Assembly: GCA_000091205.1 (NCBI GenBank)
Contig: AP006493.2
From: Cyanidioschyzon merolae
Lineage: Eukaryota
Length of the DNA stretch: 64,000 bases
Strand: one strand, 5' to 3'
Of this stretch, positions 1 through 47,400 are shown piece after piece (the stretch's first letter is position 1; each line of letters begins with the position of its first letter). Below the pieces are notes generated by a model. It was given only the letters and a program-made list of their open reading frames with translations. It had not been told where the DNA came from and did not search any database. The position numbers and the translations under genes are program-made.

Positions 1-2
1 AA

Positions 3-2189
3 TTGGAGGCCCCCAAGCGGGATACGAGCCGTTCAAGTCCGGGAACGCAACGCGGAACGCTGAGTGAGCGCACGTTATCTGAACCGGACGCAACCGCGGC
101 GGATCCTGCGCAGCACCATCTGAGAGTATCATCTGATGTAGCTGTAGCAACCACTGCGGTTTCACAGCTATCGCTCAGTGCCGATGCCGACAAGACCCTA
201 ACGAAAGAGATCCCCTTCCATTCCGATTTACGCACGGATGCGCCCGAATTCGTGCCGTTTATATCGTACGGTGGCTTTGGCACATCTGCATTCCCAGTAC
301 CACAGATGAGCCCGACGTTCTTTTCAGCTCCGTACGGCGAGGCGACGCGGTCGGATCTATATCCTTTACCAGCTTATATGCAGCCTGCTGACTGGGGCAC
401 AGCGTCTGCCGGCGATACGATCGACATGCACCATCTCAGTTCTGGTGGCGAGGCGGCTGTACCCACAAGGACAGTGAGGCAGCGTGCGCCCCCAGAGGAC
501 GACGATGAGGATCTCGCAGCGGCGGCGATTTCGTCGGCGCTCGGCGAGCGGCGCCAGCATCGTGGCGGCAAGGGCGTCACCGCAGGGCGACACGCTGGAA
601 CCAGCAGTGCGCCTGGACGAACGCGGCAGCGCCCGACGATTGCGGCCAGCACGGAAGTATTTCGGGCCAACAGGGGGCGTCACCGGACTGGGATGGGTGT
701 GGGCGCTTCTGGCACCGATGGAACGCTTGCCAAGCCACAGCGCTTCGTGTCCGAGGATCGCGAAGCGCCCTCGCACTCGGAAGCTTCAGCAGCATCAGCA
801 TCAGCATCAGCATCACGTCTGGAGCAGGAAGCAACGACTCCGATGGCACGTTCTGGACAGCAACAGCGGACCGCAGATTCAAACACGAGCGCCAGCACGG
901 AGCTGCAAACGAGGCGGCGGTCTCCTGGGCTGCGAACGAGTAGCAACAGCAGCAATGTGCGCTCTGTGCAGGATGTGCGCTGCGAATCCAGGCGTGGTAC
1001 TGCTGCTCCTACTACTACTACTGCAACGCAATCGTCGCCGGGGGAGAATCTGAAAGCTGCGGACGATGAGAGCGCGCAACGTTCGGAACCTGCGCCAGCT
1101 CTTTCAGAACAGCAGAGCGGGGCTGCTGCATCCGATGCAAGAGCCGGTGTGCAAACGCGAAAGGTAACCACAGGCGTGAATAGACTCAAGGCTGTGAAGC
1201 CATCTCGGCCCGCAACCGCGAACAAGTCGGCAGCAAACGCACTAGAACCAACAGCGGGTACCGGAACGGCCGATCGGAACGGCGAAGACGCCCTGGCACC
1301 AGCGACGACGAAGCGCGGCAAGTATTGCGACCGCAACGCTGGTGCCGATGGGAAACGTCGCGAACGATGGACAAGCCGACCGCGTCCACGAAGCATGCGC
1401 GAAGGGCGTTCGCGGAGTACCGCTTCCGTTACGGGTGCTGCTTCTGCAGCGACAACGGAGCCGAAGACGGCTACAGCCTTGGACACCGCAGTCAAGATGT
1501 TGCCGTTCGAGGTCAGTGGAACACGCACACCATCGCCAGTGCAGCGGGAGCAGCAGAAGCAAGAAGCGGTGCCTGAAGCGCCAACTCGAACGTCTCCAGC
1601 GGCGGAGGGCGCTCCCAAGGCGCTTGTCACGCCAGCTGATCCCGCTGAGGATCCGAAAACGCCTGCCAAAGACCAGCGGACTCGTGAGGCAGGCTCATCT
1701 GACGCGAGGGTATCAACGACGACGCCACCATTATCATCATCAGCGTCAGCATCAGCGTCGTTGTCGTCGAAAGAGCAAGGAGCCGCCAATGCGAAAGCAA
1801 CCGCCGCTACGGGCCAAGAAACGAAACACGAGCATTCGGCTTCTCGTCGACACTCGCAACGAAAGCTGCACCCGCGACAACGTCAACAGAAGCATCGCTT
1901 CCGGAACCGGACCAATGCAGGCAGCGAACAAGTCGAAAGCTCAGCGCGCACCATGCAACCCGAGCCTGCACCAACCGGAAACGATCGTTCTTCCGCGAAC
2001 GACGAGCATCGTGCGAGCTTCAAAAACGTCGATGTTGTCCCAGTTGCTGGCGCTTCCCTTGCACAACCAAAGTTCAAGCTGTCAACCGAGAGCGCAGTCG
2101 CTTATCGCCGAGTCGAGGCGAACGCGTCTCCGAGGCGTGCTCTGCGACAATTTCGCGAAAAGGTCAGCGAGGACGCCAAAGACGCATGA
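3..2189 (+). CDS. 5'-truncated at the window edge. Ser/Ala/Thr/Arg/Pro-rich, intrinsically disordered protein carrying a PAM2 (PABP-interacting) motif, LRTDAPEFVPF
   Basis: 728-aa open frame running from the window edge. PAM2 consensus L-x-x-x-A-x-E-F-x-P at nt 223-258. Low-complexity SASASAS runs. The antisense ORFs across it are compositional artefacts. Confidence 0.5.
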   Translation: MEAPKRDTSRSSPGTQRGTLSERTLSEPDATAADPAQHHLRVSSDVAVATTAVSQLSLSADADKTLTKEIPFHSDLRTDAPEFVPFISYGGFGTSAFPVPQMSPTFFSAPYGEATRSDLYPLPAYMQPADWGTASAGDTIDMHHLSSGGEAAVPTRTVRQRAPPEDDDEDLAAAAISSALGERRQHRGGKGVTAGRHAGTSSAPGRTRQRPTIAASTEVFRANRGRHRTGMGVGASGTDGTLAKPQRFVSEDREAPSHSEASAASASASASRLEQEATTPMARSGQQQRTADSNTSASTELQTRRRSPGLRTSSNSSNVRSVQDVRCESRRGTAAPTTTTATQSSPGENLKAADDESAQRSEPAPALSEQQSGAAASDARAGVQTRKVTTGVNRLKAVKPSRPATANKSAANALEPTAGTGTADRNGEDALAPATTKRGKYCDRNAGADGKRRERWTSRPRPRSMREGRSRSTASVTGAASAATTEPKTATALDTAVKMLPFEVSGTRTPSPVQREQQKQEAVPEAPTRTSPAAEGAPKALVTPADPAEDPKTPAKDQRTREAGSSDARVSTTTPPLSSSASASASLSSKEQGAANAKATAATGQETKHEHSASRRHSQRKLHPRQRQQKHRFRNRTNAGSEQVESSARTMQPEPAPTGNDRSSANDEHRASFKNVDVVPVAGASLAQPKFKLSTESAVAYRRVEANASPRRALRQFREKVSEDAKDA
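223..258 (+). other. PAM2 motif (LRTDAPEFVPF), predicted to bind the MLLE domain of poly(A)-binding protein
   Basis: Matches the ataxin-2/Paip2 PAM2 core LNPNAKEFVP position by position. Confidence 0.5.
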
Positions 2190-3387
2190 TCGTCGTTTAT
2201 CTCAATTGCAATGCACCTCCAGATGGGTGTCATCAAATGCCTCTTCGCGGTTTACAGCAGATGCGTTTGAAATGCGTTCATTTTGAAGAATAAAAAGTCC
2301 CATGGAAAGGTATGCACATGGAGGTCGAAGATCCCGGACGACCACGATCGTCGCCTATCAAACGATACCCAAAAGAAATCCTCTTCTCACGGACCATCGA
2401 GCGAAGGAGAAGAAGAAGAACAGGAAGGAGTAAGCGAGAAGAGGTGTTTGTCCGACGGAATGGCAACGAGACCGCGGTGGTACGGAGGGCACGATTTCGA
2501 TGAATGCTCGCATCGGCAAGATCCACCAGCTGCAGATCATACATGGAGTTCGTGAACCGAGACTTGAACGTCCCCATCAATATCAGGAGATGTGCGGTAC
2601 CGAGGACGTGACCTGCGGTGCTGACGCGATCGAATTCTGTGGAGCAGTGTCTCAGACTCGAGGTGCTCAAGGAGAAAAGCACTGGGAGGCGTCTGCGGGT
2701 GGCTATTCATTTACCCGACACGGTCGTAGAACATTTTGGTGTTTCACGTATCGAGTGCGCAGCAAGCAAGTCACGTTCAAAGCACAGACGTTGCAGTCGA
2801 GCGATGCTTCATTCGGCCGCTGAAGCGAATCAGCCTTCAGCAGCTGCCGAGTCCTCAATCCCATACCCGCACACGAGCGACTGCTGCATATGGTGTTTCG
2901 GTGGCGGCGGACAAGCTTCTCGGGCGGGAGTTTCTGTGCACTAGGGCTGCGTGAGTAGCGCCGCCGGGGCGTAAAACCTTTCCGCAGCACCACGTGATGG
3001 GAATCATTTCAAGAATCTGGCTTTCAGGTAACGCTTGATGGGGGTTTCACGAGACCCGCTGCTTTCTTTGTGGGTGCATTATGCCAGTCTGCAGGATGCG
3101 GCTCTATCGGTGTCCCGATGTGCTGCAGTTTTGACCGGCGGTGCCTGCGTTCGGTACGAATATGGGGCGCTGCGTGCCCGGGAGCGCACGAACCTGGACG
3201 CTGTGGGGCTGCTTCCTCGCACGCCGTTGAACAAGCTCGCCGAACACGCCACTGGATACGAAGACGCTGGTGCTGTTGCTGCTGATTGCGTGCGGGGATT
3301 CACCTGATCTTCGTTAGACGCGATCGGAAGGTTACATGCCGATATTCGTGCGGGTGCGACCTCGTATTCCAGTCGTCGTCGTCGTTA

Positions 3388-4738
3388 CGCATATTCTAGA
3401 AAGAAATGCAAAGGGTGCTCCAGGACGAAAACAAAAAAGGATTCTTGGGACAGTTCCTGATGTAATCAGTACTGAGCATTGTGGGCTTTTCATGCGACTG
3501 CTCTCGATCGCTCCCTCTTATCTCCGAGCCTGAAATGGATCGGTCTTCTTTCTCCCGCCAGATATGTTTCAGGACGTCGAGGGGTGTTCATGGCAGCGTC
3601 CTAGGCCGCATGGCGTTGCTCCTGGCTGCTGAACAAACGTTTCACGCGCAGGAAAACGTAACGATCTATGCTTCGCATGCCATTCGCATCTTCTTCGTAT
3701 ACAGTCTCAGTGTGTGACCTTCTTCGTCATGAAATTGGAGGCTATTCACGCATTCTAAGTATTTTGGCCAGTATTCCGCTTCCATCGCGCTGTACTGGAG
3801 CAGGGTAACACCTCCTTCATCGCACGATGCGTACCGTTGACCGGTACAGAAGGCTTCCGCGAATGCACGCCTCCGGGTCCACACCAGGTACCTTGCCTCA
3901 CGAGCATGTGCTCCTTATTTGCGATTCCCGCAGCGACGACGATGTCCGCTGCATAGACAACCGCTCGACGTCATCGTCGGTGAGGGATCTATGGACCGCG
4001 CTCTTGTCCATGATGAGACAAGGAGCGGAACCAAAAAGCAGGCATGTACGCTGGCCGGGAAACTCGGGTGCGTCACTGCACCTGTCGTACTGAGCGGTGA
4101 CGCACGCTCCACTGGAAGCGATCACTGCGATGCTTGACGTCCGCGTCCGAGATCCTTCTGCGTACAGACGGAAGCGACAGGGAGCCTCTAGATGCATATC
4201 CTGCGACAGGTATCATGTTGCACTCGAACGCCGTCTCATGTCTGGCTACAACGAGCAGCGTACTCGAATGTGGAACGGAATCGATCAATGGGCGTGACGA
4301 GTTCACAGCGGTTCCCGTATGAGCTTGTGGAGGAATCGTTGGAGGTCGACCTTGAGGATTCTCGCTTGACCATGCAGCGGTGCGGTTGCGCAGCACCGAC
4401 GATCTGCCGTCAAACAGCATGATCGAAACGGTGAACAGTGCGTGGATTGAGCATGGAAAGCGGAGAGCAGGCACACGAGCGAAGACGCTCTCGTATGGAC
4501 ATGTTATTGATAGGGGCTATGGAGGGAGCTCATGTTGTAAAACGCCGCGATCCATCTGGATTCCAGCGACATAAGAAAGTCCGTCTGCCGAGGATCGCAG
4601 TCGTCATCCCGGGAAACCAACCGAGAATCCTGCAACTGCACACGAAATTCCGTAAGCTCTGATTACAAATTCTGAATAGCACAACGATACATCGAATGAT
4701 ACTTTGGAAGAGAACGCTCAGGGCATGAACAAAGCGTG
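3388..4738. repeat. Left arm of a ~1.35-kb inverted repeat, ~98% identical to its partner at 10993-12336
   Basis: Every short ORF in this arm (for example 4438-4662 +, 4073-4474 -, 3898-4197 -) has a near-identical twin on the opposite strand in 11080-12261. I aligned the boundaries by eye. Confidence 0.85.
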
Positions 4739-5631
4739 AAGTCCGATGTGCCTTTCCATCGATGACCAGCGAAACGATAAATGTTTGGCAACCATTGGGT
4801 ATATTAGCATCGACTCGCAGACGCCTCCTAGCCTTTTTGCCGAGGGATATTGTGTGCTATCTTTTTCAGTTTCCCCTTGTGCTCGCATCCAGGCTTAGCG
4901 TCGTTCCCAGAGTGTTTGGTCGTCTCGGTACCTCGGGTCTCGTGCTTTGCGCAGCAAATCGTCTGATATTGATAGCAGCGCTGGAGCCTCGGTTCACGAA
5001 ATTCTTGCATGCATTTTTCTGGTTGTACGCTCTATTGCAAAGATTCCCAGAACTTGTACCCTCCGCACCACTACAGTCTCATCATCGTCCAGTCGAGCAA
5101 GCACCTCCTCTCGTCCACTTCCCCTTCTTCTTCTTCATGACTTGCTCTACGTGCTGGAACGTCGGCGAGAACAGGATTTTTCGTATCCTTTTGCGACAGC
5201 AGGCGGCACCGGCTTTCCAGGATACTCGACTTCCGCGTCCATCCCATTCCCTCATACTTTTATTTCATCAAATAAATGAACCTGGAACGCATCTATTATA
5301 AACCACGAAAAAGCATTTGATGACTCTATGCCAGAGGTGGATACCATAGACGTGAAAGACTGTCATCTTACGGGGGGTGTCGGCCGCTGCGCTCGATGAC
5401 GGTTACGTGCAAAAGGCTTTTTGTCGCTCTTTTGTGGAATACTCGTTCGCTATGATGAAACCAACGTGATTATGTCAGTTCTGCTGCTGATTCAAGTCTA
5501 CAGGAAGAAACGTTCACGTGGACTGAGCAACAAGAGCGAGTATTCCTAGTTCAAGGGTTTACCTGGTCTCCGTCGCAGACTGATCTCGGGGACGATACAC
5601 TTCGCTAACGAGCAAGCTCTGTAGCGATCTG

Positions 5632-7260
5632 ATGCAGCGCACCCGATCTCTGGCTGCTTCCGTCCAAAGTCTCGCCAGATCTCTTCGAAGTAAGCAACTG
5701 CGTCCCTACCAAAAGGTGACGCAGCACGCAAACCGGGTAGAAACGGTGTCACTCGGGTCACTGAGCTACTGTGCAAGCGTCGTCACGCGATACCTCTGTA
5801 GCGCTGCACAGAAAGCCGCTGGGGCCGCGGGCACGCGGCCAACCATTTACGCCCTGGCGACTGCACCAGGAACAGGCGCTATAGCAGTATTCCGGATCAG
5901 CGGCCCCGAGACCCGACAAGTACTGCAGGCGGTGCTCCATGTGCCTGCGCAAAAACTTCCGCAACCACGGCAGCTCGTTCCGCGGACGCTCTATGATCCG
6001 CAGCGCAACTACGCTTTCGACCGCGGTATGGTCGTCTGGTTTCCGGCACCAGCATCATACACCGGAGAGGATATGGCGGAGTTGCAGGTGCACGGAGCAC
6101 CAGCGGTCATTCGTGCAGCGCTTGTTGCACTGGCGGGATACCCAGGCCTCGTCCCTGCTACAGCGGGCGCTTTCACCAAAAGAGCGCTTACGAATGGCAA
6201 AATGGACCGATCTCAGGTGGAGGCGCTAGCTCATATCATCCAGGCGGATTCTCTCGATGGGCTTGCCCTGGCGGTGAATAACTTGCAAGGAGCGCTTCGC
6301 AGCCAGCATCATTCTTGGCGAGCGCACCTGCACGCAGCGATGGCGATCATGGAGGCGGTGCTTGAATTCGGAGAGGAGCACCTCGCACACGAAATAGACG
6401 CACAACTGGAGCAAGCAGCGCAGCGTATACGGGCTGTGCAGGCAGAGATGCGCATGCAGATTCGTCTCGCGAGTCCCGAAGGTCAACGACCGGAACTGAG
6501 CCTGACGCCACGCATCGTGCTGTACGGGCGAGTGAATGCGGGCAAGAGCAGTCTATTTAACTTGATAGGGCAACGGGAGGCCTCTATTGTGCACGAGACT
6601 CCAGGAACAACTCGAGATGTCGTTGAGCAGAGAGCATACATCGACGGGCTTGCCGCAACCATCATGGACACAGCGGGGCTGCGTGAGACGCCGCAAACCG
6701 CCAGTGCGATTGAAGCCGAGGGCATTCGTCGAGCCCGAAAAGTCATTGAACAGACGCCGCTGCGAGTGCTCGTGGTAGACGCAAGCACAGAGGAAGAATG
6801 TTCATTGGAGCATGACCCAACTGCGGCATGGTTGCCCAGTGCTGTGGTGCTCCACAAAGCAGACCTAGTCCCTGATCATCAACAGCGCGAGGCGTTGAGG
6901 AATCGCTTTTCACGCTGTTACCGAGAGTCTGATCTGTTTTTCGTATCCTCCCGAACAGGCGAAGGGGTCGATGCTTTTCTGAACTGGCTTGGCGAGCGGT
7001 TACGCGCAAGATTCGAATGTGCAAAGGATACAGATCAACGTCGCTGTCTCATTCAGACGCAACGTCAGCATGCACTCCTAAGAGTTGTCCATGATCTGCT
7101 TGACGGTGCTTTGCAGCATCTCATCGTGCCAGAGCTTGCGGTAGAGCATCTTCGTTCGAGTCTACAGCACTTGGCGGAGATATCAGGAGAGGGCGATCGG
7201 CGCTTCGATGCCGAGGATACTCTTGAGCATATCTTTTCGCGCTTCTGTATCGGCAAGTGA
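5632..7260 (+). CDS. Mitochondrial tRNA modification GTPase MnmE/TrmE (MSS1/GTPBP3 family)
   Basis: N-terminal TIYALATAPGTGAIAVFRISG. G-domain GRVNAGKSSLFN...DTAG. C-terminal CIGK tetrapeptide typical of MnmE. N-terminal basic presequence. Confidence 0.85.
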   Translation: MQRTRSLAASVQSLARSLRSKQLRPYQKVTQHANRVETVSLGSLSYCASVVTRYLCSAAQKAAGAAGTRPTIYALATAPGTGAIAVFRISGPETRQVLQAVLHVPAQKLPQPRQLVPRTLYDPQRNYAFDRGMVVWFPAPASYTGEDMAELQVHGAPAVIRAALVALAGYPGLVPATAGAFTKRALTNGKMDRSQVEALAHIIQADSLDGLALAVNNLQGALRSQHHSWRAHLHAAMAIMEAVLEFGEEHLAHEIDAQLEQAAQRIRAVQAEMRMQIRLASPEGQRPELSLTPRIVLYGRVNAGKSSLFNLIGQREASIVHETPGTTRDVVEQRAYIDGLAATIMDTAGLRETPQTASAIEAEGIRRARKVIEQTPLRVLVVDASTEEECSLEHDPTAAWLPSAVVLHKADLVPDHQQREALRNRFSRCYRESDLFFVSSRTGEGVDAFLNWLGERLRARFECAKDTDQRRCLIQTQRQHALLRVVHDLLDGALQHLIVPELAVEHLRSSLQHLAEISGEGDRRFDAEDTLEHIFSRFCIGK

Positions 7261-7431
7261 GCATCAACGATATGGGCTTTCCATCGATTCACCTCGCGCT
7301 TTCTGGACGCCGGGTGCAGTATTCCCGATCCGCTTCGCATCCAGCGTGTTGCCTGATCCGAACAGACACTCCACGCTAGCACTCACACATGAACGGATGG
7401 ATGCATACGAATCCGATTCATGAAGATGATG

Positions 7432-7451
7432 GATAGATAGATAGATAGATG
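7432..7451. repeat. (GATA)5 microsatellite
   Basis: ggatagatagatagatagat. Confidence 0.9.
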
Positions 7452-7728
7452 CAATTCAAGTCGCTTTATCAGAATGGCGCCCATGCGATGCACGGGGCGC
7501 GTTTCCCGTCGAATCCGCTGCCGCCGTATTCACAAGGCATCTCTACGAACGACATAGAGGTGCCTTGCCTCCCCGAAGCGGCCTGTGTTCTCTGTTGACG
7601 GTCGACGTGGCTATCGCCCCGTGTGCCGTTGTGGAGTAACTCGTTCGTAAATGAGCCAAAGCAGAGGCGCGTCCCTGTCTGGGACACCCCGATACTTGAA
7701 CGACATCGCAGTGTCACCTGGAGGTCTG

Positions 7729-7750
7729 TCGCCGCCGCCGCCGCCGCCGA
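7729..7750. repeat. (GCC)~7 microsatellite
   Basis: gtcgccgccgccgccgccgccg. Confidence 0.9.
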
Positions 7751-8294
7751 TGCTGCATTCGAGTCTTTGACAGCCGTCGATTGCTACCGTCTGGCGTGTA
7801 CTATTCGCAGCAGTCCTGATCCCTGTCCATATGAATTACAACAGTGAATGGTGTCAAGAACAATGCTCTACACCCGCTTGCTGATCAATCTGGTTCGCTC
7901 AACACCCTAGCACTGCACCTGGAACCTCGGTTAACGCAAGCTTTGGCGAGCGCCCGAGGCTATACCATTCATGTCTCGCGGGACACTGATGCTCTGGCAA
8001 TGGCCCGCAGCTACCCTGCTACCATCCTATCGTTCTTGTGCATGTGTGCTTGCACGTCGTTCGGATCACGCTGGTCCCACTTGAATACACAGCATCCTTG
8101 GCGCTTGTCCAAGACGCCGAGGCGACTCACTGCACAGCGTCTGGCACCTGCTAGGTGAGCGTGTGTGCGTGTGTGTCCGTAGCGTACGAAAAGCGCCTCG
8201 TTTTGCGCAGCAGCATCGCAATTGGCGACAAGTCCGGTCTGCGTACAAGTTTACGTCGGGATGAAGCAGCATACAATTGATTTTTGAAAATTCA

Positions 8295-9032
8295 CTAGTG
8301 ACGCCGCTGCGTGTCACGACGTTCCTCGTAACGCCATTGCCATGGCCACTCAAATAACAGCGTCTCGTCATTCGTTTCTTGAGAAGCAGCCCAGACCCCG
8401 TGATGCTCTCTGCGAGCCTCCTCTTCGTCCGGGACGTACATGGTACTAAATTTTCGGAACGCTACAGCCCAACCGTCTCGCACCATCGCACGACCGAGGT
8501 CCAGGGTCTCGCCGCTCGCCTCTTCGACTGAACAGATAGCGACAATGCGCTGGAAAGGATCGCGTCCTCGTGGGACACAGGTGACGGGGCGGGCGCCAAT
8601 GAGCGCACGAAGATGCTCCGTCGCCTGCAGGCCACAGCGGTAGGTATCGAACTTCAGCGGGGCAGCGTCTGGAGCCGTGTTGTGGATAGGCCGTCGGCAG
8701 CGCTGGCGCTGTTCAAAAGCATCCATACCGAAGAGCCGCACTCGCGTTGTACCAAACGCCAGGGTGTCGCCGTCCACTATGCGTGGATAGCCATGAATGA
8801 CTGAAGCCGACGCCGGTCTCTCTCGGTTTTCCAAAGTAACTGCGTTAGCGGGCAAAGCGAACGCTGCAGAGCGCGGCACTGATGCTGGAACGGGAGCCGT
8901 CACACCTATCACACTGATGATTCCGATACCTACCAAACAGAGACCGAACACGTCGTCCTTTCGTAGCCGGTGTCCCTTGGAGCCCCACAAGTCCCACAAG
9001 TCCCATAAAGGCACGAAACACGCAAAGGACAT
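8295..9032 (-). CDS. Staphylococcal-nuclease (SNase/thermonuclease)-like protein with an N-terminal transmembrane or signal segment
   Basis: VDGDT motif (IVDGDTLAF). C-terminal LGRAMVRDGWAVAF...HGVWAA resembles the thermonuclease LVRQGLA...GIW signature. Hydrophobic GLCLVGIGIISVIGV near the N-terminus. Confidence 0.6.
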   Translation of the reverse strand: MSFACFVPLWDLWDLWGSKGHRLRKDDVFGLCLVGIGIISVIGVTAPVPASVPRSAAFALPANAVTLENRERPASASVIHGYPRIVDGDTLAFGTTRVRLFGMDAFEQRQRCRRPIHNTAPDAAPLKFDTYRCGLQATEHLRALIGARPVTCVPRGRDPFQRIVAICSVEEASGETLDLGRAMVRDGWAVAFRKFSTMYVPDEEEARREHHGVWAASQETNDETLLFEWPWQWRYEERRDTQRRH

Positions 9033-9284
9033 TCACAGGCAGACGCAGTGCGCCACCGACTGCTGATAGCGCCTTGCTCCGGTGAGGTCCTTTGAGCTGC
9101 ACGGAGGGTGCGTAGCGCCAGACGCCCGCCAGTATGCGAACGATGCTAGAACAAAGACCGTCAACTACACCGCTTGTAAAGACGCTTCTACGTAGCACTG
9201 CACTCAGCGCAGCGTTCTTCACTGGAATCGCTCAAGTACGCTGCTTCAATACCCTCCTCTGTATCCGTTTATGGTTTAGAAACG

Positions 9285-10079
9285 TTGCGAGCAACCAGTG
9301 CGACCGTCGAGCGCACCCCAGGTATCGGCAAATTCGCGTTCGCCTTGCAGCGCTGCAGCGAGGCGATGCCCGCATTCGCGACTCGACAGCAATCGTCACA
9401 CAACGATTCCCAGTTCACCACAGGAACTCGATGCAAAGCGATGCGGTACCCGGCTGTAATTGTCGACACCGTCCGTGGCATGGTATATGGCAAAGTCGCT
9501 GTTACCCGGTGCTGCATCAACGCTGGCACGATCAAGGTTATGGAGCACGTTCGCAGCAGACTCGAGGCACAGTTCAACGTTCGACGTGACGACTATCGCC
9601 AGGATAAAGTATGTCTCATGGAACGTACAGGTAGTTCTGAAACGTACCGTACGGCACGTATCCTGGAGGAAGCGGATACGTCCGTGAACTTGGAAGTAGG
9701 ACAAGACATGCGGATCGCCACTATCGAGCACGAAATCGGGGATTTTCCTCGTCACGGAATTGCTCTGTTGCGTAAAACAATATCCTTTAACTGGCGTTGT
9801 CCAGCGTACATCCCCAAATCACAACCGTATTCTGCACAAGCACGGGAATTATGTTCCCTGCACGATAATGAATTCGATATTTTCGATGATGCTGATGATG
9901 CCGCTTCGATACCGCTGCATGAGACAGCGCGCGGGCTGAAGCGCTCGGCAGCGGCGGCGGCGGCAATGCGAGGCATTTTTCCAGGCGCTATGCTTGGCGC
10001 TGCAAACTTTGTACCCGTTTCTTCTTCAAACTCGGCACCATGTCGAATACCCTCGCAAACCTCATCCAGCAGCGTGTAG
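9285..10079 (+). CDS. Hypothetical protein, no recognisable domain
   Basis: 264-aa ORF. Its 3' end overlaps the next ORF by 40 nt in a different frame. Confidence 0.3.
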   Translation: MRATSATVERTPGIGKFAFALQRCSEAMPAFATRQQSSHNDSQFTTGTRCKAMRYPAVIVDTVRGMVYGKVAVTRCCINAGTIKVMEHVRSRLEAQFNVRRDDYRQDKVCLMERTGSSETYRTARILEEADTSVNLEVGQDMRIATIEHEIGDFPRHGIALLRKTISFNWRCPAYIPKSQPYSAQARELCSLHDNEFDIFDDADDAASIPLHETARGLKRSAAAAAAMRGIFPGAMLGAANFVPVSSSNSAPCRIPSQTSSSSV

Positions 10080-10963
10080 TTGAGAATGCATCTGACCCCT
10101 ATTTTACGCTTCCTTTTTCCATAGATTCAGATGCAGACTTGCTTCCTCGTGAAGGCACGTCACTCGGTATTGGCGGAACTGCGGCGTCACCGAGAGACGT
10201 TACGCCGAGCGCACCACCCTGGGATGCTCTCGCGGAAACGTCTTGGCCGGTGTTTGGTTCCATAAGTTGCTGTACGGATGATAATGATGGGTTACAGTGG
10301 CTTGGGGACGTTTTTCCGAGCCCGCAAAAGCAACCGATACGACGAAAAACACGTTCCCGCGCCCACCTAACTTGGTTTCCGGTGCACGTCGACGGTGCAG
10401 TCGACGCTCCGGACCCACTGACCAAGCGACTTTCCTTCTCGCTGAATGTAGGCCGCCTTCTTCTCCAGAAAGCAAAGGTCCTTTACGCAACCAGCTCCGT
10501 GTCACTGCAAAGCCGCCTTTCCAACCTGGTATGTGTTCATGGCGTTGTCCAGCATTTGCTGAAATGCATTCCGCAAACCGTTGAAGTTTGGTCAGCAGCC
10601 GCACAAGCCCGCTGGCGTCTGCTGCAAGCTCGTGTTCCGCGGTGGCATCAGGTCCGGGAATGTCATCTGGAAGGAAGCCTCACGGGCCTTGTGATCTTCG
10701 TGCGGGAGCCGAGACCCGCCCGAACATCACAACCAAGCATCAGGTACTTGAACGCTTGCGCGCATGATATAGTCGAGCGATGGCGGTCTCTATGGGACGA
10801 CTGGCAAGCTCACTGTTACCAACGACGTGCACTGTATTTTGAACGGTACTGGGAAGCACGTGCTCTTCGATTGGAAGAAGAGAGCGTGCAGGCGCGCCAA
10901 GCGGCCCAGGCCTGGAGACGAGCGCGTGAGCGGCGGCAGCGCTATCGACGTACTGAACGCTAG
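10040..10963 (+). CDS. Hypothetical protein with an Arg/Trp-rich C-terminus. It may be the continuation of 9285-10079.
   Basis: 307-aa ORF on the same strand, abutting and overlapping the upstream ORF. Confidence 0.3.
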   Translation: MSNTLANLIQQRVVENASDPYFTLPFSIDSDADLLPREGTSLGIGGTAASPRDVTPSAPPWDALAETSWPVFGSISCCTDDNDGLQWLGDVFPSPQKQPIRRKTRSRAHLTWFPVHVDGAVDAPDPLTKRLSFSLNVGRLLLQKAKVLYATSSVSLQSRLSNLVCVHGVVQHLLKCIPQTVEVWSAAAQARWRLLQARVPRWHQVRECHLEGSLTGLVIFVREPRPARTSQPSIRYLNACAHDIVERWRSLWDDWQAHCYQRRALYFERYWEARALRLEEESVQARQAAQAWRRARERRQRYRRTER

Positions 10964-10992
10964 CGCTGAGGACAGTGTCAGATGAACATGTG

Positions 10993-12336
10993 ATACTGAG
11001 CTACACGCTTTGTTCATGCCTTGAGCGTTCTCTTCCAAAGTATCATTCGATGTATCGTTGTGCTATTCAGAATTTGTAATCAGAGCTTACGGAATTTCGT
11101 GTGCAGTTGCAGGATTCTCGGTTGGTTTCCCGGGATGACGACTGCGATCCTCGGCAGACGGACTTTCTTATGTCGCTGGAATCCAGATGGATCGCGGCGT
11201 TTTACAAAATGAGCTCCCTCCATAGCCCCTATCAATAACATGTCCATACGAGAGAGTCTTCGCTCGTGTGCCTGCTCTCCGCTTTCCATGCTCAATCCAC
11301 GCACTGTTCACCGTTTCGATCATGCTGTTTGACGGCAGATCGTCGGTGCTGCGCAACCGCACCGCTGCATGGTCAAGCGAGAATCCTCAAGGTCGACCTC
11401 CAACGATTCCTCCACAAGCTCATACGGGAACCGCTGTGAACTCGTCACGCCCATTGATCGATTCCGTTCCACATTCGAGTACGCTGCTCGTTGTAGCCAG
11501 ACATGAGACAACGTTCGAGTGCAACATGATACCTGTCGCAGGATATGCATCTAGAGGCTCCCTGTCGCTTCCGTCTGTACGCAGACGGATCTCGGACTCG
11601 GACGTCAAGCATCGCAGTGATCGCTTCCAGTGGAGCGTGCGTCACCGCTCAGTACGACAGGTGCAGTGACGCACCCGAGTTTCCCGGCCAGCGTACATGC
11701 CTGCTTTTTGGTTCCGCTGCTTGTCTCATCATGGACAAGAGCGCGGTCCATAGATCCCTCATCGACGATGACGTCGAGCGGTTGTCTATGCAGCGGACAT
11801 CGTCGTCGCTGCGGGAATCGCAAATAAGGAGCACATGCTCGTGAGGCAAGGTACCTGGTGTGGACCCGGAGGCGTGCATTCGCGGAAGCCTTCTGTACCG
11901 GTCTACGGTACGCATCGTGCGATGAAGGAGGTGTTACCCTGCTCCAGTACAGCGCGTTGGAAGCGGAATACTGGCCAATATACTTAGAATGCGTGAATAG
12001 CCTCCAATTTCATGACGAAGAAGGTCACACACTGAGACTGTATACGAAGAAGATGCGAATGGCATGCGAAGCATAGATCGTTACGTTTTCCTGTGCGTGA
12101 AACGTTTGTACAGCAGCCAGGAGCAACGCCATGCGGCCTAGGACGCTGCCATGAACACCCCTCGACGTCCTGAAACATATCTGGCGGGAGAAAGAAGACC
12201 GATCCATTTCAGGGTCGGAGATAAGAGGGAGCGATCGAGAGCAGTCGCATGAAAAGCCCACAATGGTCAGTACTGATTACATCAGGAACTGTCCCAAGAA
12301 TCCTTTTTTGTTTTCGTCCTGGAGCACCCGTTGCAT
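10993..12336. repeat. Right arm of the inverted repeat, reverse-complement copy of 3388-4738
   Basis: Reciprocal ORF twins. Only a few substitutions are visible, for example HETAFECNM versus HETTFECNM. Confidence 0.85.
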
Positions 12337-12471
12337 TTTAGTCTGACATATGGTTGCATCAACGCCGAGCCATCTCGCCATGAGACAACTGCGGGCAACC
12401 AGCCGCGGCGTTTTGGCAGTTTGGCGCACTGGGTACGCTCCGCGCAGTCTCCTCGGGAGAAAACTACGGAT

Positions 12472-13983: not shown

Positions 13984-15273
13984 CAGCTCAGCGCTCCGGA
14001 TCCTATAAACAACACAATCATGACAGCAGTTCAATCCGGCTGAGCAGTTCTGATGATTTGCACGTCGCGAAAGCCAACTGTTGGACTTTCAGTCTATGCC
14101 TCCTTCGGACCAAGATGAGCAGCAACGGAATATGCATTTTCGGGGGCGTTTCCAGGTTGCATCCGGTGCAACGCAATGCCGTATTGCTTTTGAGTTGCTG
14201 AAACGAGCAGAGCGCCTCTCTCTCTCTCTAAAGCATCGCGACTGCCGTCTTTTGTTTTATGATCGCGGGTACTCAACACTGGGCAGACGTAACCGATGAC
14301 GTCGCTGGCCCATGAACACGCGAGCGTGGCACCAGTGGAGCCGCCCCGAGCGCCAACTCCAGTGGCACGCGCTCCGGTCCAGCGATGCGTCTCTCGCGTG
14401 GTGTACGGACGATAGACCTAAGGAGGATCCAGCGGATTCGCGCTTGCTATGGGCATTCGGCGTAGACAGGCTGTGATATTCGCCGGTGAATGTAACACGG
14501 ATTCTCGTGCCTGTCGATGCACAGCAGCGCACCCTCCACAGCATACAGAGGCACGCGCCTACGACGCTACGCACAGCGGCCTGCGAGCGGAACAGGCACC
14601 GCGTCCCTGGACATATCCGCCGCGTCGAAGAGTTCCTGATGTGTTCATCCTGTTAGCATGCCTATTCTGGTGGAATCGCGTCTCGATAGACCATAGTTCA
14701 ACGAATGTATGGCGTTGCTATAGAGCAGTTTTGCCGATTGCATGCAGAAAGCGTCATGATTCAGAACTGCTGCCAAAGTAACCAGCGCGTGCGGATTTTG
14801 GCTCCCTTGAACAAGAATGTTTTTCCAGATGGAACATACCGAGCAAGGAACCAGGATCTGCATGTTTCCTTTGTCTCGAATGAGCGTCGACTGTCGGATT
14901 CATGTGGCAGCGAGCGTCGGTACTCGATCGTGCGTGGGTGCAGCGCTTTTTTTCCGGACACGCTCTTCATGCAGCGGGTTTGTGTCACCTGTTACATCCG
15001 AAAAACGACTCGAAACTGGGAGCCAGGTCGCTTTGGGGACGCAGCGAGTGTGCGCGGCCGCTTCGCAAAAGCACATGTCGAAAGGAAAGAGCGTTCTCGG
15101 AGACCCGATGCCATCATGCTGATTTGTAGCCGTTCGCAGCACAACCAACAAGTGCGATCGTCCGGTGATTGCTCGCTGGCGTCTATGCGGACCGGGGCTC
15201 GACCGCAGGACTCGTGCTCTCGCCAATGAAACGACGACTGCTGTACGCGCTCTTTCCGTCTTTCCCACTCTCA

Positions 15274-15292
15274 CTGTGTGTGTGTGTGTGTA
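15274..15292. repeat. (TG)~9 microsatellite
   Basis: ctgtgtgtgtgtgtgtgtgt. Confidence 0.9.
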
Positions 15293-15602
15293 TGAGTGTA
15301 TGTTGAGAGGCGATGCTCCAGGCTCCACAGCGGTAGATGCTGCGCTGTGGGCATGCATCGAATTCAACCGAACAAAATGCCCTGGTGTCCATGAAAACCG
15401 TCCACCATGATCCGTGACTGCGTTTCCAAGCAGCATCCCAAGGCATGGCGGCAGCAGCGAGGCTCCCGTGCCATCCTCCATACCACCCTCAGCGATCAGT
15501 CGCCAGTTCCATGATCACAAGCGGTTCGATACGGGATCATCATCTCGAGCGCAGTCGCCATCATTATCTGGGATGCGAAGCTGCCGGCATAGGCCCGGAC
15601 TT

Positions 15603-17960
15603 TTAGCCGCTGTCGGCTATCCCGATGATTTCATCGTCCACCGCGAATGCAAATCCCTCCACGGCGATACCGCACTCCTGGCCTTTCCGCACCTGGGCAA
15701 CATCTTCGCGATAATGCTTGAGAGAGCTGATACGCGCCTCATGAACACATTGTCCTTGTCGAAGAATCCGCACTGGATGACGCCTGTAGATAACGCCATC
15801 GATCACGCGGCAACCGCCGATAATAAGTGCGTCAGCGACCCGCTTGCCGGCGTTGTATGTGAAGACCTGCTGCACTCGAGCTCTGCCAGTGGCAACCGGA
15901 GCCTGGGGCTCGTCGCTCTGGGCCCGTCGCTGTTGCTGCTGGATGTCGTCGAGGATCTCGTAGATCACCGTGAAGCACTTGACAGGTACATGATGCCTAG
16001 CCGCCAATTCCGCGATTGCCCTCGGTACCTTGGTCTGGAAGGCAATGATTTGCGCCGGACGATCCAGAGAAGACGACGCCAGGAGAATATCGGCCTTGCA
16101 TACCGCTCCAGTTGAAGCAAGCATGATGTGAATGGGGAAATTCGGGGTGCTCATGCGCTGCACCGCTTGCGCTACCGCCTCTACGGTACCTCGATAGGTA
16201 CCACGAATGATCAGCTCGAGACCCGTTGTATGTGCGGTTCCCGAGCGCGTGGCTTCGCTACCGCGTGCAGCGGTGCTCGCTGGGGTCTCCAGCGCCGCAG
16301 TGGATCGCTCAGATCGTACGAAAGCTTTGGCAGCCTCTTCACTATCAACAGTTCGAACAATACTGCCGGGCTCGACGGGGATCTCTGAGTCGTCTTCGTT
16401 GCGACGCACCCCGATGACGGTCACCGGCTGTGTCGGCCATGCCTCTTGGATTTTTCGCCCGTGCTCGTCCAAGAGAAGCCGTACGCGTCCCCAGGCGGCA
16501 GGTGTTGCCAGGATATCTCCGGAACACAATTTCCCGTGTCGGAATAGACAGTCTAGCACGAGACCATAGCCTCGATCCATGCGCGCCTCGAGGCACACGC
16601 CCTCCGCGGCACCTTGTATGCTTGTCGTCCGTTCTGCCTCTAAAACAGCAGCTTGCAGGAGAATCGCCTCCACGAGTCGATCGAGATGTAGTCGCTTCAG
16701 AGCTGAAATCTCTACGCACTGCACATCACCGCCAAGCGCTTCAACACAGAGACCAGCCTGCTCCTCGAGTGCCTTGTAGATCGCCATGCCTCGGCCCTTG
16801 ATCTTGTCGCACTTGTTCAACGCGACGATGATCGGTACTGCAGCTGCACGAGCGTGGTGAATAGCCTCCAGCGTCTGCGGCATCACGCCGTCGTCAGCAG
16901 CAATCACCAGCACGACAATATCCGTCACAGAGGCCCCGCGTGCTCGCATCTCGGTGAACGCCTCATGACCTGGCGTATCCAGAAAGGTTATCCAAGGCAC
17001 CGAGGGTACGTCAGCACTCTGTCCAAGGATGCGCTCCCAGAATACTCGAAATGCGCGAATATTTTGGGTGATTCCACCGGCTTCCTCTCCAGCGAGTTGC
17101 GTCTCGCGTAGCGCATCGAGTAGCGTTGTCTTGCCGTGGTTGACGTGCCCCATAACCGTCACGATGGGTGGACGCAACCATGTATTGGTCGCGGGGGTTT
17201 TCGCAGCATCTACTATGTGTTCCACTGGACCAGCTTTCGTTGCCGATATGCCTAGATGGCGTATGTATCGAGCGCACAGAGCCGTACTGCGGCTGGGTGA
17301 GCGCCACTGGCACTGGGCACGTCTCTGAAGCTGCACTTGCCGCAGGCTCGGTATCCGGGGGCCACGTACCTCTACAGAGCCTTGCGCTCGACTGGATACG
17401 ATTCGCAAACATTTCGAGTCGTCTGTAAAAAGAGACTCCCGCTGGCGACGAGGTTTCTCGTGTGGACGCCCGAGGCGCTGCTGCAACGACCGCAGGGTGC
17501 GGGATGCGCTGCGCTGGAAGGCGCCTCGGCCCACCGCAGTCCCAAAGCTGGTACCGTACCCGTGTTGAAGGATTTTCGCATCAGCGAAGTGACTCGACAC
17601 TCTGGTATGTCGCACTAGGGACGATGCGTAGCTTTCGAATCGTGCAGGCAGTTTGAGTGCTGCTTCAGCTGCGCCTCTAGCTGGAGGAAGCGAGCTGCCA
17701 GCGCTGTTCCCACGCAGAACTTTGTCCAATGCTCCCACGCTTGATCTGCTCCTCCAGCACTGCAGATGTCGCCAACAGACATCACCAAGTCCATTCGCGT
17801 CTATAACTTGCTGTAAAGTGCCTCCCGATTCGCCTCTGCTTAGAGGGCGCTGGTGAAGAACGCGTCCAGTACTGGGCGGCGCCTGCGCTCGCAAAACCTC
17901 TGAAACGTTCTTTAGGTTACCGCACAAAGCGCTGAAACAAGATCGTAGTGGTAAAAACAT
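15603..17960 (-). CDS. Translation initiation factor IF-2, organellar (mitochondrial) type
   Basis: G-domain [19 protein letters not shown]...DTPGHEAF...NKCD. IF2 beta-barrel and C-terminal domains follow. Long N-terminal extension. Confidence 0.85.

Positions 17961-32116: not shown

Positions 32117-32117
<1 letters not shown>

Positions 32118-32211
<94 letters not shown>
32118..32211. repeat. (GCGT)~23 microsatellite, ~50 bp upstream of the DNA ligase I start codon
   Basis: Perfect tetranucleotide run gcgtgcgtgcgt... Confidence 0.95.
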
Positions 32212-32215
<4 letters not shown>

Positions 32216-41506: not shown

Positions 41507-43783
41507 GGGTACGGAGGCGGAAGAGCCTCCGCTTTTGCAACGAGCGACAGCTGAACGCTGTGAAACGTCGCAGTTGTAGCGCTATGAGCTGCTTGCACCA
41601 ACCTCCAGCCTGAAAAATGGAGAAGCCTCAGCAACCAGAACCAGATCAAGCGACTAGTCGATGGAAGACTATGGATATTGCGACACAGACGCCAAGTTCA
41701 TACGGAACGAAGCCGAGCAGCAAGTTGGCGCTGAAACGGTTTGTCGGCGTTTCGTGACGGCCACGTTTCCTCGCCAAGCAGCCGCCTTGATGGATCTACT
41801 GAAACTCCGCGAGGAGCGTGTACGTTATCCTCCTGCGGAATGCGGACTTGACGTTTCCGTTTGGAGATTATAGTATCGCCCACAATTTTCCCCTGTGAAT
41901 ACCAGGGCAATACGTCACGTTGTGGGGTTGGATATCGAGATACCGACCAAAATATCACTGTGTGGATATATAGGCTAGGAGTTCATCTCGCTCGTTCGAA
42001 TTTCATGATGTGGACCGTATTGTTTCCACATGCACACCAGCGTATTTCTTGCAGCTCCTCGGTTTGCATATCAGGGTGCATGGACCTCGTTGTGAGGCCC
42101 CCGCGGACACTACGCCCGTACTGGATTTATGTAGAACATTGGAATGTTGGATGTGTGCCTGCCTTGAGATCTTTTTCTTACTTTTTTTACGTGTACATAC
42201 TTGGTATTCGAAGCACAGCGATATGGACTTTCCCACTTATAGGTAGTTATATGATGCCCGGCCGTCTCCTCGGAGTGACTTCATCGACGCTTTGCTGCTG
42301 AAGCTCGTAACAAGCCCAGGACCCAGATAATGAGCGAAGCTCTCGAGCAGCGCTACGAAAATACCCGATTCCATAATCCAATTCATAACTGCAAGAATCT
42401 GATCTTCTCTGTACCTCATGAGTAGCTTGCCCGAACCATGTATTCATCAACTTTTCGAACTCTGTATTTTAAGGCGACGTGTGAGCGCAGCAATGGGCGT
42501 CGCTGGACTGACGACGAGCATAGCTTGACGTGGTCCCTCGATGGCTGCTTCGCAAGCTCACTCCACAAGTTCACTAATCATCTCACGTTAAGTACTCGAC
42601 ACCACTCGAAAGATAAACCCTAAACCCATTGTGGTCGACGACGAGGCGGCATTCGACGGCAGCATGATACCTGTCCAGGGATACGCTCCAATGGTATCCC
42701 GTCTCTTCTCTTTCCATTGAATCTAGAACGCCATCAGCGCAGTGAATGGAAGCAGATACTGAGTTATTGAATGGAACAGAGTGCGCTCGCGGAGGCACTG
42801 GACAAGGTACTCGCAGATGCGATGTCCCAGAAGAGGCCCATGATCCTGGGGTGCGGCACTAGGCGTAAAAGCCGAAGAGATACCGAATAGATCCATCTGG
42901 ACCCGCGAAGAGCATGTGCCGAGCGGTAAAGGAAGCATTGATGCATCACAGTGCGGTGCTCGGAGAAAGAGGTGTCATGGACATATACGAACAAGTGACC
43001 ACAAAATCCTGTAATCACTGCAAAAAGCGCAACGACGCTATCTTTATACGAAAAACATGGAAAGTGAAGCATTGATACCATTTTCCGCCTGTAACTGAGT
43101 TGCGTCGGCAACAGCCGTAATTGATCTCGTCTGTACTCGGACGGCGCCATCAACATCTTTCAACGGCTGACAAGCGGCCTGAGGGCTACGAGTGCCCCGC
43201 TTAGTCGAATCTGGAGATCACAGAGAGGAAAAGGAAGCAGTCCGACAATCGTCACCATAAAGGCTGGAGTTGATAAGCGTCCAAAGACGCCCAAACGTCG
43301 ACGTGTACATCATGGTGAACCGAGTAGAAAATGTTCCATGGTACTCCGCTAGACGAATCGGTGGAGACAGTTCAGCCGCGGCACCAATACCCCCGATAAT
43401 CGCTTCTTCAACAAAACGTCCAAAACTGCCCCTTCCGGGCGGACGCAATCGCTTTGCAACCCAAGTTCGAGGCGCGAGCCAAGCCATTGCGTTGGCGTGT
43501 GAAGCAGCACCGCATTCTGTTCACCCCGGACAACTATTTTTCTGTCGGCTGGTACGGCTTGACCTCGACCGACTTGCACAGTCCGATCGGGTTCTGTGGG
43601 TTTACTGCTCTACTACCTGACTCTGCGAAGTTGTGCAGAACTGAGAGGAACTGTTGAAGCCACGACGAGCTCGAGGCCCCGCTCGTCACACAGGCGAGCA
43701 TCGCCTTGTGCTTTTTCGTGTAAGATAACTTCACACGGTGTTCCATACTTGTTTGCGTCGAATACGCTCCCAGAAAATATTGC

Positions 43784-45604: not shown

Positions 45605-47104
45605 AGACTGGTGCTCAGTTGTTCAAGGCAGCGAGCGCGTACGCCATATCCAGCAGGAAACGAATTGCATGCACAGCGCCTAGGCAAGGTGACGTCTGGT
45701 GCGTGTTTTGCTCCTGACGCCAAGCGCTGACGCGATCTCGAGCCGGCAACGAATCGCTTGCCCAGCGTCTACAGAGGCTGAGCTCTCGAGTTTGTTTTGC
45801 TCATTAGAGAGCCAACGCTTCAGTGATCTGCAGTAGGCAACGAACCAGGTACATAGCGTCCAAAGCCATTGCGTGAAAAACACATTGATGCATTTGCAAG
45901 AAACTGCCGTCGACAAGAGCACTGTCGTCGTGTCCAAGCTTAGCGCCCAGCGCTTTCCCGTAAACCTGCGTCAGGCGTTCAGTCTTTGCTATTATCACTG
46001 TGCAGGGTCAGAGCGGAAGAGAGTAGCCGGACAGCACCTGCTCTGCTGAGCTTATCTGAAGGTATACCTGCTGCCCGAATGCAATAGAACCGGTCCTCGA
46101 ATTCTGATGTATAAACAAAGTTTCGGGTCTCTTGCCAATGCCATCAACTTCGGTCGTTGTGAGCTTTGTTCTCAAACCGCTTGCTTTTCTTTTCCCTGGT
46201 CTTTAGCTTTCAATACTTCTGTTAATTCTTTTCTTCACAGCTCCGTTATCAACAGTTGAAGGATGCTGATGGCAGTGTCAGAGCCCTAATATCGCAGCTT
46301 TCAGCTGTTTTCATTGCACTTGCCGCACAGACTCTAGTTCCGATCGGAGCTCCGCTTGAGATGTTCTTTTTCTTTGTTTACATCGTGAGTGCACCCCTGT
46401 CAGCGGTGGCCTTTGACCATGGTGAGCTGTTCGCGTACCTGCACTACACTTTTTCTGAGCGTCGGCATGTGGCGCGTTAGGGCCTGCTTTATCGTGGAAT
46501 ACATCGCGTTCTCGGTTCCAGAACACTACGCGCCATATCCTACCCCAATTACTTACTGCATTCCGCGTCATATGATCACGGGCTCGCACTGAGCGATGCC
46601 ATCGGCGAGTACGCTGTATCACCGAGGCGCAAGCGCAATCGGCTCCATTTGCCGAAGGATTTGTGGATGACGATGTTGCCCACGGTGAATCAAGCACCGG
46701 TTGGTAAACCCAAGCTCGAGAACAAGTCGAGAAATTTCGATCCGTCTACCCTCTCATCGTAGAAAGCAGAGACGCACTCTCCACGGAAAGCGATCGCGGC
46801 GCTAGCTAAATCCCGAGTCCGGGACCTTTTTCCGTATGAACGGTTGGGACGGTAGCCTCTTCGAAAATAACCCCGTGAGAGGTATCATGCTGGTGTCGAA
46901 ATGTACACCGCCGATGGCAAAAACAAGAGGAGAATTTGGCTTTCGACTGGAATCGATTATTTGAGGTGAAATGTTTAGAGAACTTTCGGCATGCGCCTAT
47001 GAAGATGTCTTCAAGGGACGACGTCTGGTATTGTATCCCGTAAATCCAGCCGCGCACATTGATGCGCTTACGAACTGCCTTGACACCCAAATACCGAAAA
47101 CATG

Positions 47105-47400
47105 ACGAATGAGTGATTTCAGCATGCTGCACATAAGGAACGGAGGAGTGTGGAGGCTTGTACGCATATCATTGGGCAATGGTATCCGATAATTTTGCGA
47201 TCCCTTGTTTAGAGGTGTCGCGCAACATCTTGATTCCGTGGTCGTTACGAATCCAGTCGGCAAAAGGGCAAAGAGGCCTTTCCGAATAGACGAAAGCAAG
47301 TCCTAAAACCAAGTCGGCATCCTTTAGCTGTTAGTGCTCCACCTCGACTGTCGTGGCTGCACATCTGCAAAATTTCTGTTATTCGAAACGCAGGAACAGA
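47105..47400. repeat. Copy A of a ~300-bp dispersed repeat family (~80% identical to 54165-54460)
   Basis: Aligned by eye. Example: gatttcagcatgctgcacataaggaacgg...cccttgtttagaggtgtcgcgcaacatcttgattccgtgg versus gatttgagcatgctgcacctgagggaagg...cccttgttcgagggcgtcgcgaatcatcctgattccggtg. Confidence 0.7.

Follow-up and report, generated by a model that had tools for sequence, protein, structure and literature searches.

A three-gene block between inverted copies of a non-coding repeat is flipped in Cyanidioschyzon merolae 10D relative to related Cyanidiales

The 64-kb window analyzed here (64,000 nucleotides of contig AP006493.2, assembly GCA_000091205.1) belongs to chromosome 11 of Cyanidioschyzon merolae 10D and holds a block of three genes enclosed by two near-identical inverted repeats, which we refer to as the arms (Table 1). 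Four proteins encoded in the window, namely the MnmE/TrmE GTPase and the SNase-like protein of the block, together with the glycosyltransferase CMK227C and the mitochondrial IF-2 on its right, are exact matches to C. merolae 10D entries. MnmE matches the Pfam families TrmE_N, MnmE_helical, and MMR_HSR1, and its closest named relative is that of Cyanidiococcus yangmingshanensis (64% identity). The third enclosed gene encodes a conserved 307-amino acid (aa) protein that aligns over its full length with a syntenic 307-aa protein of Cyanidiococcus (33% identity, E 4e-31). To the left of the block, the window opens with the C-terminal part of a large conserved protein, hereafter 'big', which shares a 46% identity block (E 6e-32) with the 1634-aa Cyanidiococcus neighbor and is 1620-1624 aa long in its full-length versions from environmental contigs. 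A first-pass annotation, made from the sequence letters and a list of open reading frames (ORFs), had already assigned the MnmE GTPase and an SNase-like nuclease to the enclosed segment, a gene content that was borne out, as Pfam confirmed both domains.

Table 1. Coordinates of the arms, the enclosed block, its neighbors, and further repeat copies in the 64-kb window.
Feature	Position	Strand	Remarks
C-terminal part of 'big', large (~1620 aa) conserved protein	3..2189	+	Left synteny anchor
Left arm, near-identical core	3404..4741	+	Complete unit of ~1.3-kb non-coding dispersed repeat
Enclosed block, 6259 bp	4742..11000		Flipped in 10D with respect to Cyanidiococcus and two further Cyanidiales
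179-aa ORF, between left arm and MnmE	4762..5301	+	No Pfam match
Candidate box C/D small nucleolar RNA (snoRNA)	5447..5529	+	Upstream of MnmE; conserved in relatives; moves with the block
MnmE/TrmE tRNA-modification GTPase, 'similar to mitochondrial GTP binding protein trmE'	5632..7260	+	BAM80579.1
SNase/thermonuclease-like protein	8295..9032	-	PF00565; BAM80580.1; same position in L003-L005
264-aa ORF	9285..10079	+	No Pfam match; fragmented in environmental strains
Conserved 307-aa protein, function not assigned	10040..10963	+	Stop codon 38 bp from right arm
Right arm, reverse-complement copy of the left-arm repeat unit	11001..12338	-	
Glycosyltransferase CMK227C, Mannosyl_trans3, 503 aa	12472..13983	+	BAM80582.1; right synteny anchor
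Mitochondrial IF-2	15603..17960	-	BAM80583.1; second right synteny anchor
Diverged repeat copy, in two pieces	42152..43280	-	nhmmer E 4.8e-18 and 5e-11 (43243-42154)
Diverged full-length repeat copy	46111..47400	+	nhmmer E 6.9e-55 (46111-47308; to 47400 by iterated profile)
Diverged full-length repeat copy, ~58% identity	53192..54475	+	nhmmer E 2.3e-66 (arm positions 42-1335)

A repeat search of positions 1-20000 returned a single inverted pair, 3390-4741 against 11001-12352 (1352 nt each, 98% complementary, 6259 nt apart), within which BLAST delimited a near-identical core of 1338 bp (3404-4741 against 12338-11001) with 98.66% identity, 18 mismatches, and 0 gaps (E = 0). These mismatches are scattered over the arm length, and the longest identical run between the 10D arms spans 254 bp. 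Weaker, family-level similarity carries the left arm to ~3390 at its outer end (~14 bp past the core) and to ~4758 at its inner end (~17 bp), and the outer 14 bp of the right arm (12339-12352) have diverged in 10D. The arms had initially been described as reverse complements at about 98% identity lying at 3388-4738 and 10993-12336; the repeat and its identity hold, but those positions are a few bases off and imply two lengths that disagree with each other.

The loci of the three closest non-identical MnmE proteins served as outgroups, i.e., that of Cyanidiococcus (L003), that of a second lineage at a similar distance (L004), and that of a more distant one (L005; 45% identity). All three loci share the order CAP(+) IF-2(+) glycosyltransferase(-) MnmE(+) SNase(-) X(+) big(-), which, turned to the direction of the window, reads big(+) X(-) SNase(+) MnmE(-) glycosyltransferase(+) IF-2(-). 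The 10D window instead reads big(+), arm, MnmE(+) SNase(-) 307-aa(+), arm, glycosyltransferase(+) IF-2(-). In this order, X is represented by its orthologue, the 307-aa protein, and orthology of the anchor was also confirmed for 'big'. Only the genes between the arms are therefore flipped in 10D, with both breakpoints resolved to the pair of arm-containing intergenic regions, and the enclosed genes still lie between the same neighbors as in L003-L005. Because three relatives share another order, that of 10D is the derived one. The invertible-segment architecture recognized in the first-pass annotation thus finds its counterpart in a block flipped in 10D with respect to three related genomes. 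The Cyanidiococcus spacers that correspond to the arm sites are only 223-364 bp long, and neither blastn nor tblastx matched the arms to the three outgroup loci when both expanded spacers were compared, the sole match being a small conserved element upstream of MnmE. Likewise, the repeat family was not found in 64 kb of outgroup loci.

The arms themselves are non-coding. Each of their six frames contains 10-15 stop codons, the six-frame translation gave no Pfam match, no homologue of the 133-aa ORF, the longest in the arm, turned up among 5.8 billion proteins, and the exact sequences of all arm ORFs are absent from the protein collection, in agreement with the initial impression that they carry no convincing genes. 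Searching the window by nhmmer with the arm alone as the query uncovered three diverged copies of the same sequence (Table 1). Repeat copies are ~57-63% identical to each other and have a common extent of ~1.25-1.35 kb; since the other copies are of equal extent, the arms begin and end where units of a dispersed repeat do. With both arms included, this one family is represented in the 64-kb window by five ~1.3-kb copies, all of them intergenic. BLAST comparison of the whole window with itself revealed no further near-identical arm copy. Thus, the early statement that nothing else in the window shows this structure applies to the inverted pair but not to the arm sequence, which is present in three diverged full-length copies. 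No convincing target-site duplications or terminal inverted repeats were evident with either pairing of the junctions, and the element was therefore not assigned to a class.

A near-identical copy was identified outside this locus in the environmental contig L043 (ENA ERZ27247235, 19.9 kb), which was reached through a small gene-caller ORF inside the arm. Arm positions 3466-4758 are present in this contig at 98.3-98.6% identity (L043 1-1293), with 4742-4758, i.e., the inner extension of the left arm, included; beyond this copy, the contig consists of unrelated DNA that carries EF-hand and acyltransferase genes. The L043 copy has single-nucleotide polymorphisms (SNPs) of its own, and shows 7 and 5 differences with respect to the arms from the same sample in the last ~260 bp. 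Having its own SNPs and being distinct from both same-sample arms, it is a real third copy. It differs from each 10D arm at 18-22 of 1276 positions, the same distance that separates one arm from the other. At least three members of this young subfamily (~98% identical copies) are known, and its recent burst would account for the identity of the arms, making continuous homogenization unnecessary. The first-pass annotation had attributed this identity either to recency or to gene conversion; the former agrees with a third copy that differs from each arm by a similar 1.4-1.7%, and one arm edge, on the glycosyltransferase side, does bear a sign of the latter, as described below. A metagenome scan with an arm 24-mer matched one contig, yet the 24-mer is intact in 24 other fetched loci; the scanned collection thus does not include the newer samples, and the scan is uninformative on copy number. 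No match to the arm sequence was returned by a scan of viral contigs.

Contigs of the locus were retrieved from public hot-spring metagenomes, in which the relevant populations are 98.5-99.5% identical to 10D; all of them are short-read assemblies, compared at the contig level. '10D-like' Cyanidioschyzon is known from Yellowstone (PMC11662350), and is not equated here with these contigs. The junction between the right arm and the 307-aa gene occurs independently in L006, L026, L027, L029, and L030, and that between arm and glycosyltransferase in 13 contigs, each ending inside the arm, whereas L039-L041, which approach from the 'big' side, stop at the inner end of the arm. Since each of the four arm/flank junctions is found again in environmental assemblies made independently, neither arm is an artefact of the reference assembly, which removes the initial concern that the right-hand copy might be a collapse.

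Eight contigs cross the 'big'-side arm fully. In six of them, from six samples, the arm joins 'big' to the 307-aa gene (L023, ERZ27249350; L024, 3300050370; L035, 3300052695; L037, 3300050367; L045, 3300053647; and L046, 3300057138), which is the outgroup gene order plus the arm. In the other two (L025, 3300050376; and L048, 3300053687), the arm joins 'big' to MnmE, as in 10D. L023 and other interior contigs begin or end with an arm that adjoins MnmE, indicating that the un-inverted form also has both arms. The check for both orientations in other assemblies, proposed along with the initial description of the locus, therefore yielded arm-bearing contigs with the ancestral order in six cases and the 10D order in two. 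We consider it likely, short of proof, that both orientations coexist in nature.

Orientation was in full agreement with the outer haplotype of the 'big'-side arm (9/9, that is, the eight contigs and 10D). At the first six variable sites, all six contigs of the big-arm-307 type read ATCGTC, whereas L025, L048, and 10D read CCTAAC or ACTAAG (Fisher's exact p = 1/84, calculated by hand). Random chimeras are disfavored, given that orientation follows this outer haplotype. Moreover, in sample 3300050376 the 'big'-side junction (L025) and the glycosyltransferase-side junction (L013) have ~23 identical bases before their first difference, too few for a k-mer-graph artefact to have linked the 'big' flank of L025 with its non-ATCGTC arm; this comparison covers L025 and L013, not L048. 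Two near-spanning contigs are consistent with this pattern, as L006 joins the 307-aa gene to an ATCGTC-type arm and L026 joins it to a TAAC-type arm.

Several observations weigh against a polymorphic orientation generated by recombination between two independently inserted arms. The second orientation comes wholly from short-read metagenome assemblies, which can be mis-joined across a 1.3-kb repeat, and none of the reachable contigs spans the glycosyltransferase-side arm. L039 combines the 'flipped-type' ATCGTC outer haplotype with a MnmE-type inner end, and could be either a true recombinant or a mosaic path. Flanking sequences also fail to sort the contigs by orientation, L048 being nearer to L045 and L046 than to L025 or 10D, which needs recurrent flipping, inter-strain recombination, or mosaic contigs. 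Finally, target-site duplications that would prove independent insertions were not found at the junctions.

The strongest competing explanation states that the inversion is old and fixed in C. merolae, so that every contig of the big-arm-307 type would be an assembly chimera and there would be no polymorphism. Besides the short-read origin of the second orientation and the mosaic appearance of L039, this explanation draws on the frequent breakage of contigs in or at the arms and on the identical stretches of up to 254 bp in the 10D arms, which exceed typical k-mers. We nonetheless regard it as unlikely. The big-arm-307 arrangement was assembled in six samples from at least two assembly sources (ENA k141 and JGI), against two contigs with the 10D order, and a perfect correlation between orientation and outer haplotype is not expected of random path choice. 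Furthermore, this haplotype linkage is also seen in L006, which over a 210-bp overlap departs at 4 sites from the arm linked to the glycosyltransferase in that sample (L016).

Collectively, these data make it probable that the three-gene block was inverted by homologous recombination between two opposed copies of the young non-coding ~1.3-kb repeat. According to this model, copies of the then-active subfamily would have inserted, in the C. merolae lineage and after its split from Cyanidiococcus, in both intergenic regions flanking the block, i.e., one between the 3' ends of 'big' and the 307-aa gene, and the other, in the opposite orientation, between MnmE and the glycosyltransferase at their divergent 5' ends. 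Three observations argue for these two insertions: the unit boundaries of the arms, their absence in relatives, and the third ~98% identical copy elsewhere. A crossover between both copies would then have flipped the 6.26-kb block while keeping the two of them, giving rise to the 10D order. As judged at the contig level, natural 10D-like populations would retain the un-inverted order with both arms, along with some 10D order, rendering orientation polymorphic, and the block may have been flipped recurrently in them. A dedicated recombinase would not be involved in this process. Gene targeting through homologous recombination as well as gene conversion operate in the C. merolae nuclear genome (PMC3764038).

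Arm sequences in the contigs are compatible with exchange between the two positions. The 18 differences between the 10D arms are not fixed between positions but belong to 58-59 variable sites that are distributed across contigs as a mosaic, and some contigs have next to MnmE the very inner-end haplotype that others have next to the 307-aa gene. Immediately beyond the right arm (12339-12352; L009-L019), the sequence occurs in two strain forms, distinguished by clustered substitutions and a 2-bp indel. With the arm edge denoted by a slash, the two strain types on the glycosyltransferase side read CATATGTCAGACTA/AAATGC and CATAAGAGAAAG/AAATGC, set apart by this tight cluster of changes, and the second type (CATAAGAGAAAG) resembles the 'big'-side edge, CATATTCTAGAAAG/AAATGC. 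The simplest reading is that a conversion tract with a different end point lies behind the two edge types. For comparison, the 10D arms differ at 18 of 1338 positions, and 'big'-side arms of different strains at 2-32, in contigs that are not phased by strain. Dating of the duplication and quantification of conversion from the SNP tables were dropped, as haplotypes are mosaic and one sample is not necessarily one strain.

Less probable than a fixed inversion is a single event that created the second arm along with the inversion, by intramolecular replicative transposition of one resident element or by staggered double-strand breaks with duplication of breakpoint sequence, the un-inverted arm-bearing form being produced by later re-inversion. 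Replicative intramolecular transposition does yield an inverted segment between inverted copies that end at the element termini, and both the coincidence of the arm boundaries with the family unit boundaries and the lack of ordinary direct target-site duplications would fit such an event. However, the form that prevails among environmental contigs combines the ancestral order with both arms, so this scenario requires an extra re-inversion by homologous recombination, and neither an element-encoded enzyme nor a known transposition mechanism was identified. Its staggered-break version is further contradicted by arms that are complete repeat units with a third near-identical copy elsewhere.

The first-pass annotation had also entertained a composite or foldback mobile element with captured host genes. 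Such a transposon would have taken up MnmE, the nuclease, and their neighbors and could move them, and inverted repeats around a cargo bear a superficial fit to it. This proposal did not survive, and we give it next to no credence. The enclosed genes remain at their ancestral address, between the same neighbors as in three related genomes, and are therefore not the cargo of a gene-capturing element. No transposase was found in the six frames of the arm or in ORFs in or near the unit, no target-site duplication surrounds the unit, and contigs fetched via the enclosed genes place the block at this locus only. A programmed switch operated by a site-specific recombinase (as in FLP/FRT or bacterial invertases) to alter the expression of a flanking gene, to which the apparent coexistence of two orientations and the proximity of the right arm to the glycosyltransferase ATG (134 bp) might point, is just as readily dismissed, since the arms are ordinary dispersed-repeat copies, such as are present at other loci, exchange inside them leaves the upstream sequence of each gene unaltered, and no ORF in or beside the unit has a recombinase domain. 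Indeed, Pfam searches of all ORFs of at least 80 aa in or beside the unit retrieved only MnmE, SNase, Mannosyl_trans3, and IF-2 domains, and neither recombinases nor transposases.

The inversion was probably neutral for expression, because exchange inside the arms leaves each gene with its own flanks. Through the flip, MnmE keeps 890 bp together with its upstream snoRNA-like element, and the glycosyltransferase keeps 134 bp plus an arm. The right arm, which ends 134 bp before this ATG, may hold the glycosyltransferase promoter, as judged from its location. It does not, as had been suggested, supply the first 140 nt of the glycosyltransferase ORF; a mechanically called, TTG-started ORF begins at 12331, and arm core identity stops at 12338, but the sequence of the annotated protein CMK227C (BAM80582.1) corresponds exactly to 12472-13983, with its start codon lying 134 bp beyond the arm.

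Inversions generated by ectopic recombination between opposed transposable-element copies are well known, as exemplified by 2j of Drosophila buzzatii (Galileo) and by Ty- or insertion sequence (IS)-mediated events. The C. merolae case resembles these in that inverted copies of one dispersed repeat occupy the breakpoints and are both kept after the event, and in that the cargo consists of host genes in their ancestral neighborhood with no dedicated recombinase. It departs from them in the nature of the repeat, an uncharacterized non-coding 1.3-kb red-algal sequence devoid of recognizable terminal inverted repeats, target-site duplications, and transposase, and in the size of the block, which has only three genes. 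In the staggered-break model of Drosophila and Anopheles inversions, the inverted segment is flanked by an inverted duplication of arbitrary single-copy DNA from the breakpoint. The inverted duplication is common to both situations, but here the duplicated DNA is a whole repeat unit that is present at other loci.

A further parallel comes from Saccharomyces chromosome XIV, whose 24-kb 'flip/flop' region (Salzberg et al., 2022; PMC9731477) is also a gene block of a unicellular eukaryote placed between near-identical inverted repeats, with both orientations within a species, orientation independent of strain phylogeny, and signs of sequence exchange from arm to arm. However, the arms in yeast comprise 4 kb and consist of functional sporulation genes homogenized for millions of years, whereas those of C. 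merolae are non-coding and their 1.35% divergence equals that to the third copy elsewhere, such that recency alone can explain their identity; in addition, the polymorphism described here is known from metagenome contigs only. The locus is a new example of known repeat-mediated inversion and reveals no new mechanism. Our literature search found no paper describing this C. merolae inversion or inverted repeat.

C. merolae 10D serves as a reference for 'minimal' photosynthetic eukaryotes, has a telomere-to-telomere genome, and sees much use in gene targeting. The 10D reference orientation of the three-gene block would be a derived, strain-level state, and wild 10D-like contigs mostly have the other one, which bears on mapping, on synteny work, and on the population genomics of these algae. 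The locus offers a concrete repeat-mediated structural polymorphism, testable by polymerase chain reaction, in a lineage long held to be clonal and structurally simple. These results also flag a young subfamily of the lineage's main repeat, which may remain mobile.

Growth of C. merolae intergenic regions through repeats has been reported previously, with repeats forming 12.7% of the genome as compared to 0.59% in Cyanidiococcus; synteny in that study took blocks of at least five genes, too coarse for a three-gene inversion (Cho et al., 2023; PMC9812998). Like these published repeats, the one described here accounts for longer intergenic spacers than in Cyanidiococcus, and, if its copy density in the window is typical, this family could alone form a large share of the 12.7%. 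The 10D genome is also known to carry hundreds of copies of one interspersed element, of ~3.2 kb on average and with a truncated ORF weakly similar to the white spot syndrome virus (WSSV) protein WSV486 (Nozaki, 2007; PMC1955436). Both are lineage-specific, intergenic, and dispersed, with many diverged copies and no intact gene, but the repeat reported here is ~1.3 kb rather than 3.2 kb and showed no protein similarity. Their identity is thus a lead, not a result.

EF-hand and acyltransferase genes like those that follow the L043 copy lie directly beyond 'big' in L005, and PEX11 occupies that place in C. merolae-like contigs. Comparison of these regions (L043 1-1293 onward, L005 14137-21551, and L044 738-6998) suggests that the breakpoint of a second, larger rearrangement may also adjoin a copy of the arm repeat. 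A bolder and rather doubtful extension would regard the ~1.3-kb element as a recently active mobile element, its young copies as rearrangement hot spots, the block as a true flip-flop with arm exchange that, like the yeast chromosome XIV region, turns over repeatedly in natural populations, and the larger break next to 'big' (L043 versus L005 and L044) as marked by one such young copy. If that were so, the repeat would be the main driver of structural differences between this 'simplest' eukaryotic genome and its sister genus.

Two further ORFs lie within the block. In environmental strains of 99% identity, the 264-aa ORF is broken up to varying extents, giving ORFs of 143-264 aa, and it is probably not a gene. 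The 179-aa ORF has equal length in 99%-identical contigs, which is no demonstration of coding, and its counterpart was not found in the corresponding 364-bp spacer of Cyanidiococcus (L003). An exact-sequence protein look-up with an 89-aa spacer ORF gave no match. Searches for structural RNAs revealed no tRNA in the window, and no Rfam family reached its gathering score anywhere in it. The candidate box C/D snoRNA lies ~100-185 bp upstream of the MnmE start and contains CTGA boxes as well as a C box (ATGATGA). Its sequence is conserved at 81% over 79 bp in Cyanidiococcus (L003 9822-9899), at 90% over 50 bp in L004, and in part in L005, and its best Rfam match is snR61/Z1/Z11, with 26.6 bits (E 0.044) under a gathering score of 45. 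Elsewhere in the window, we observed a perfect short-period tandem array, with self-matches at 8-bp offsets, at 32117-32212, and ~60-bp tandem duplications of 95-96% identity at 20243-20364 and 58735-58876.

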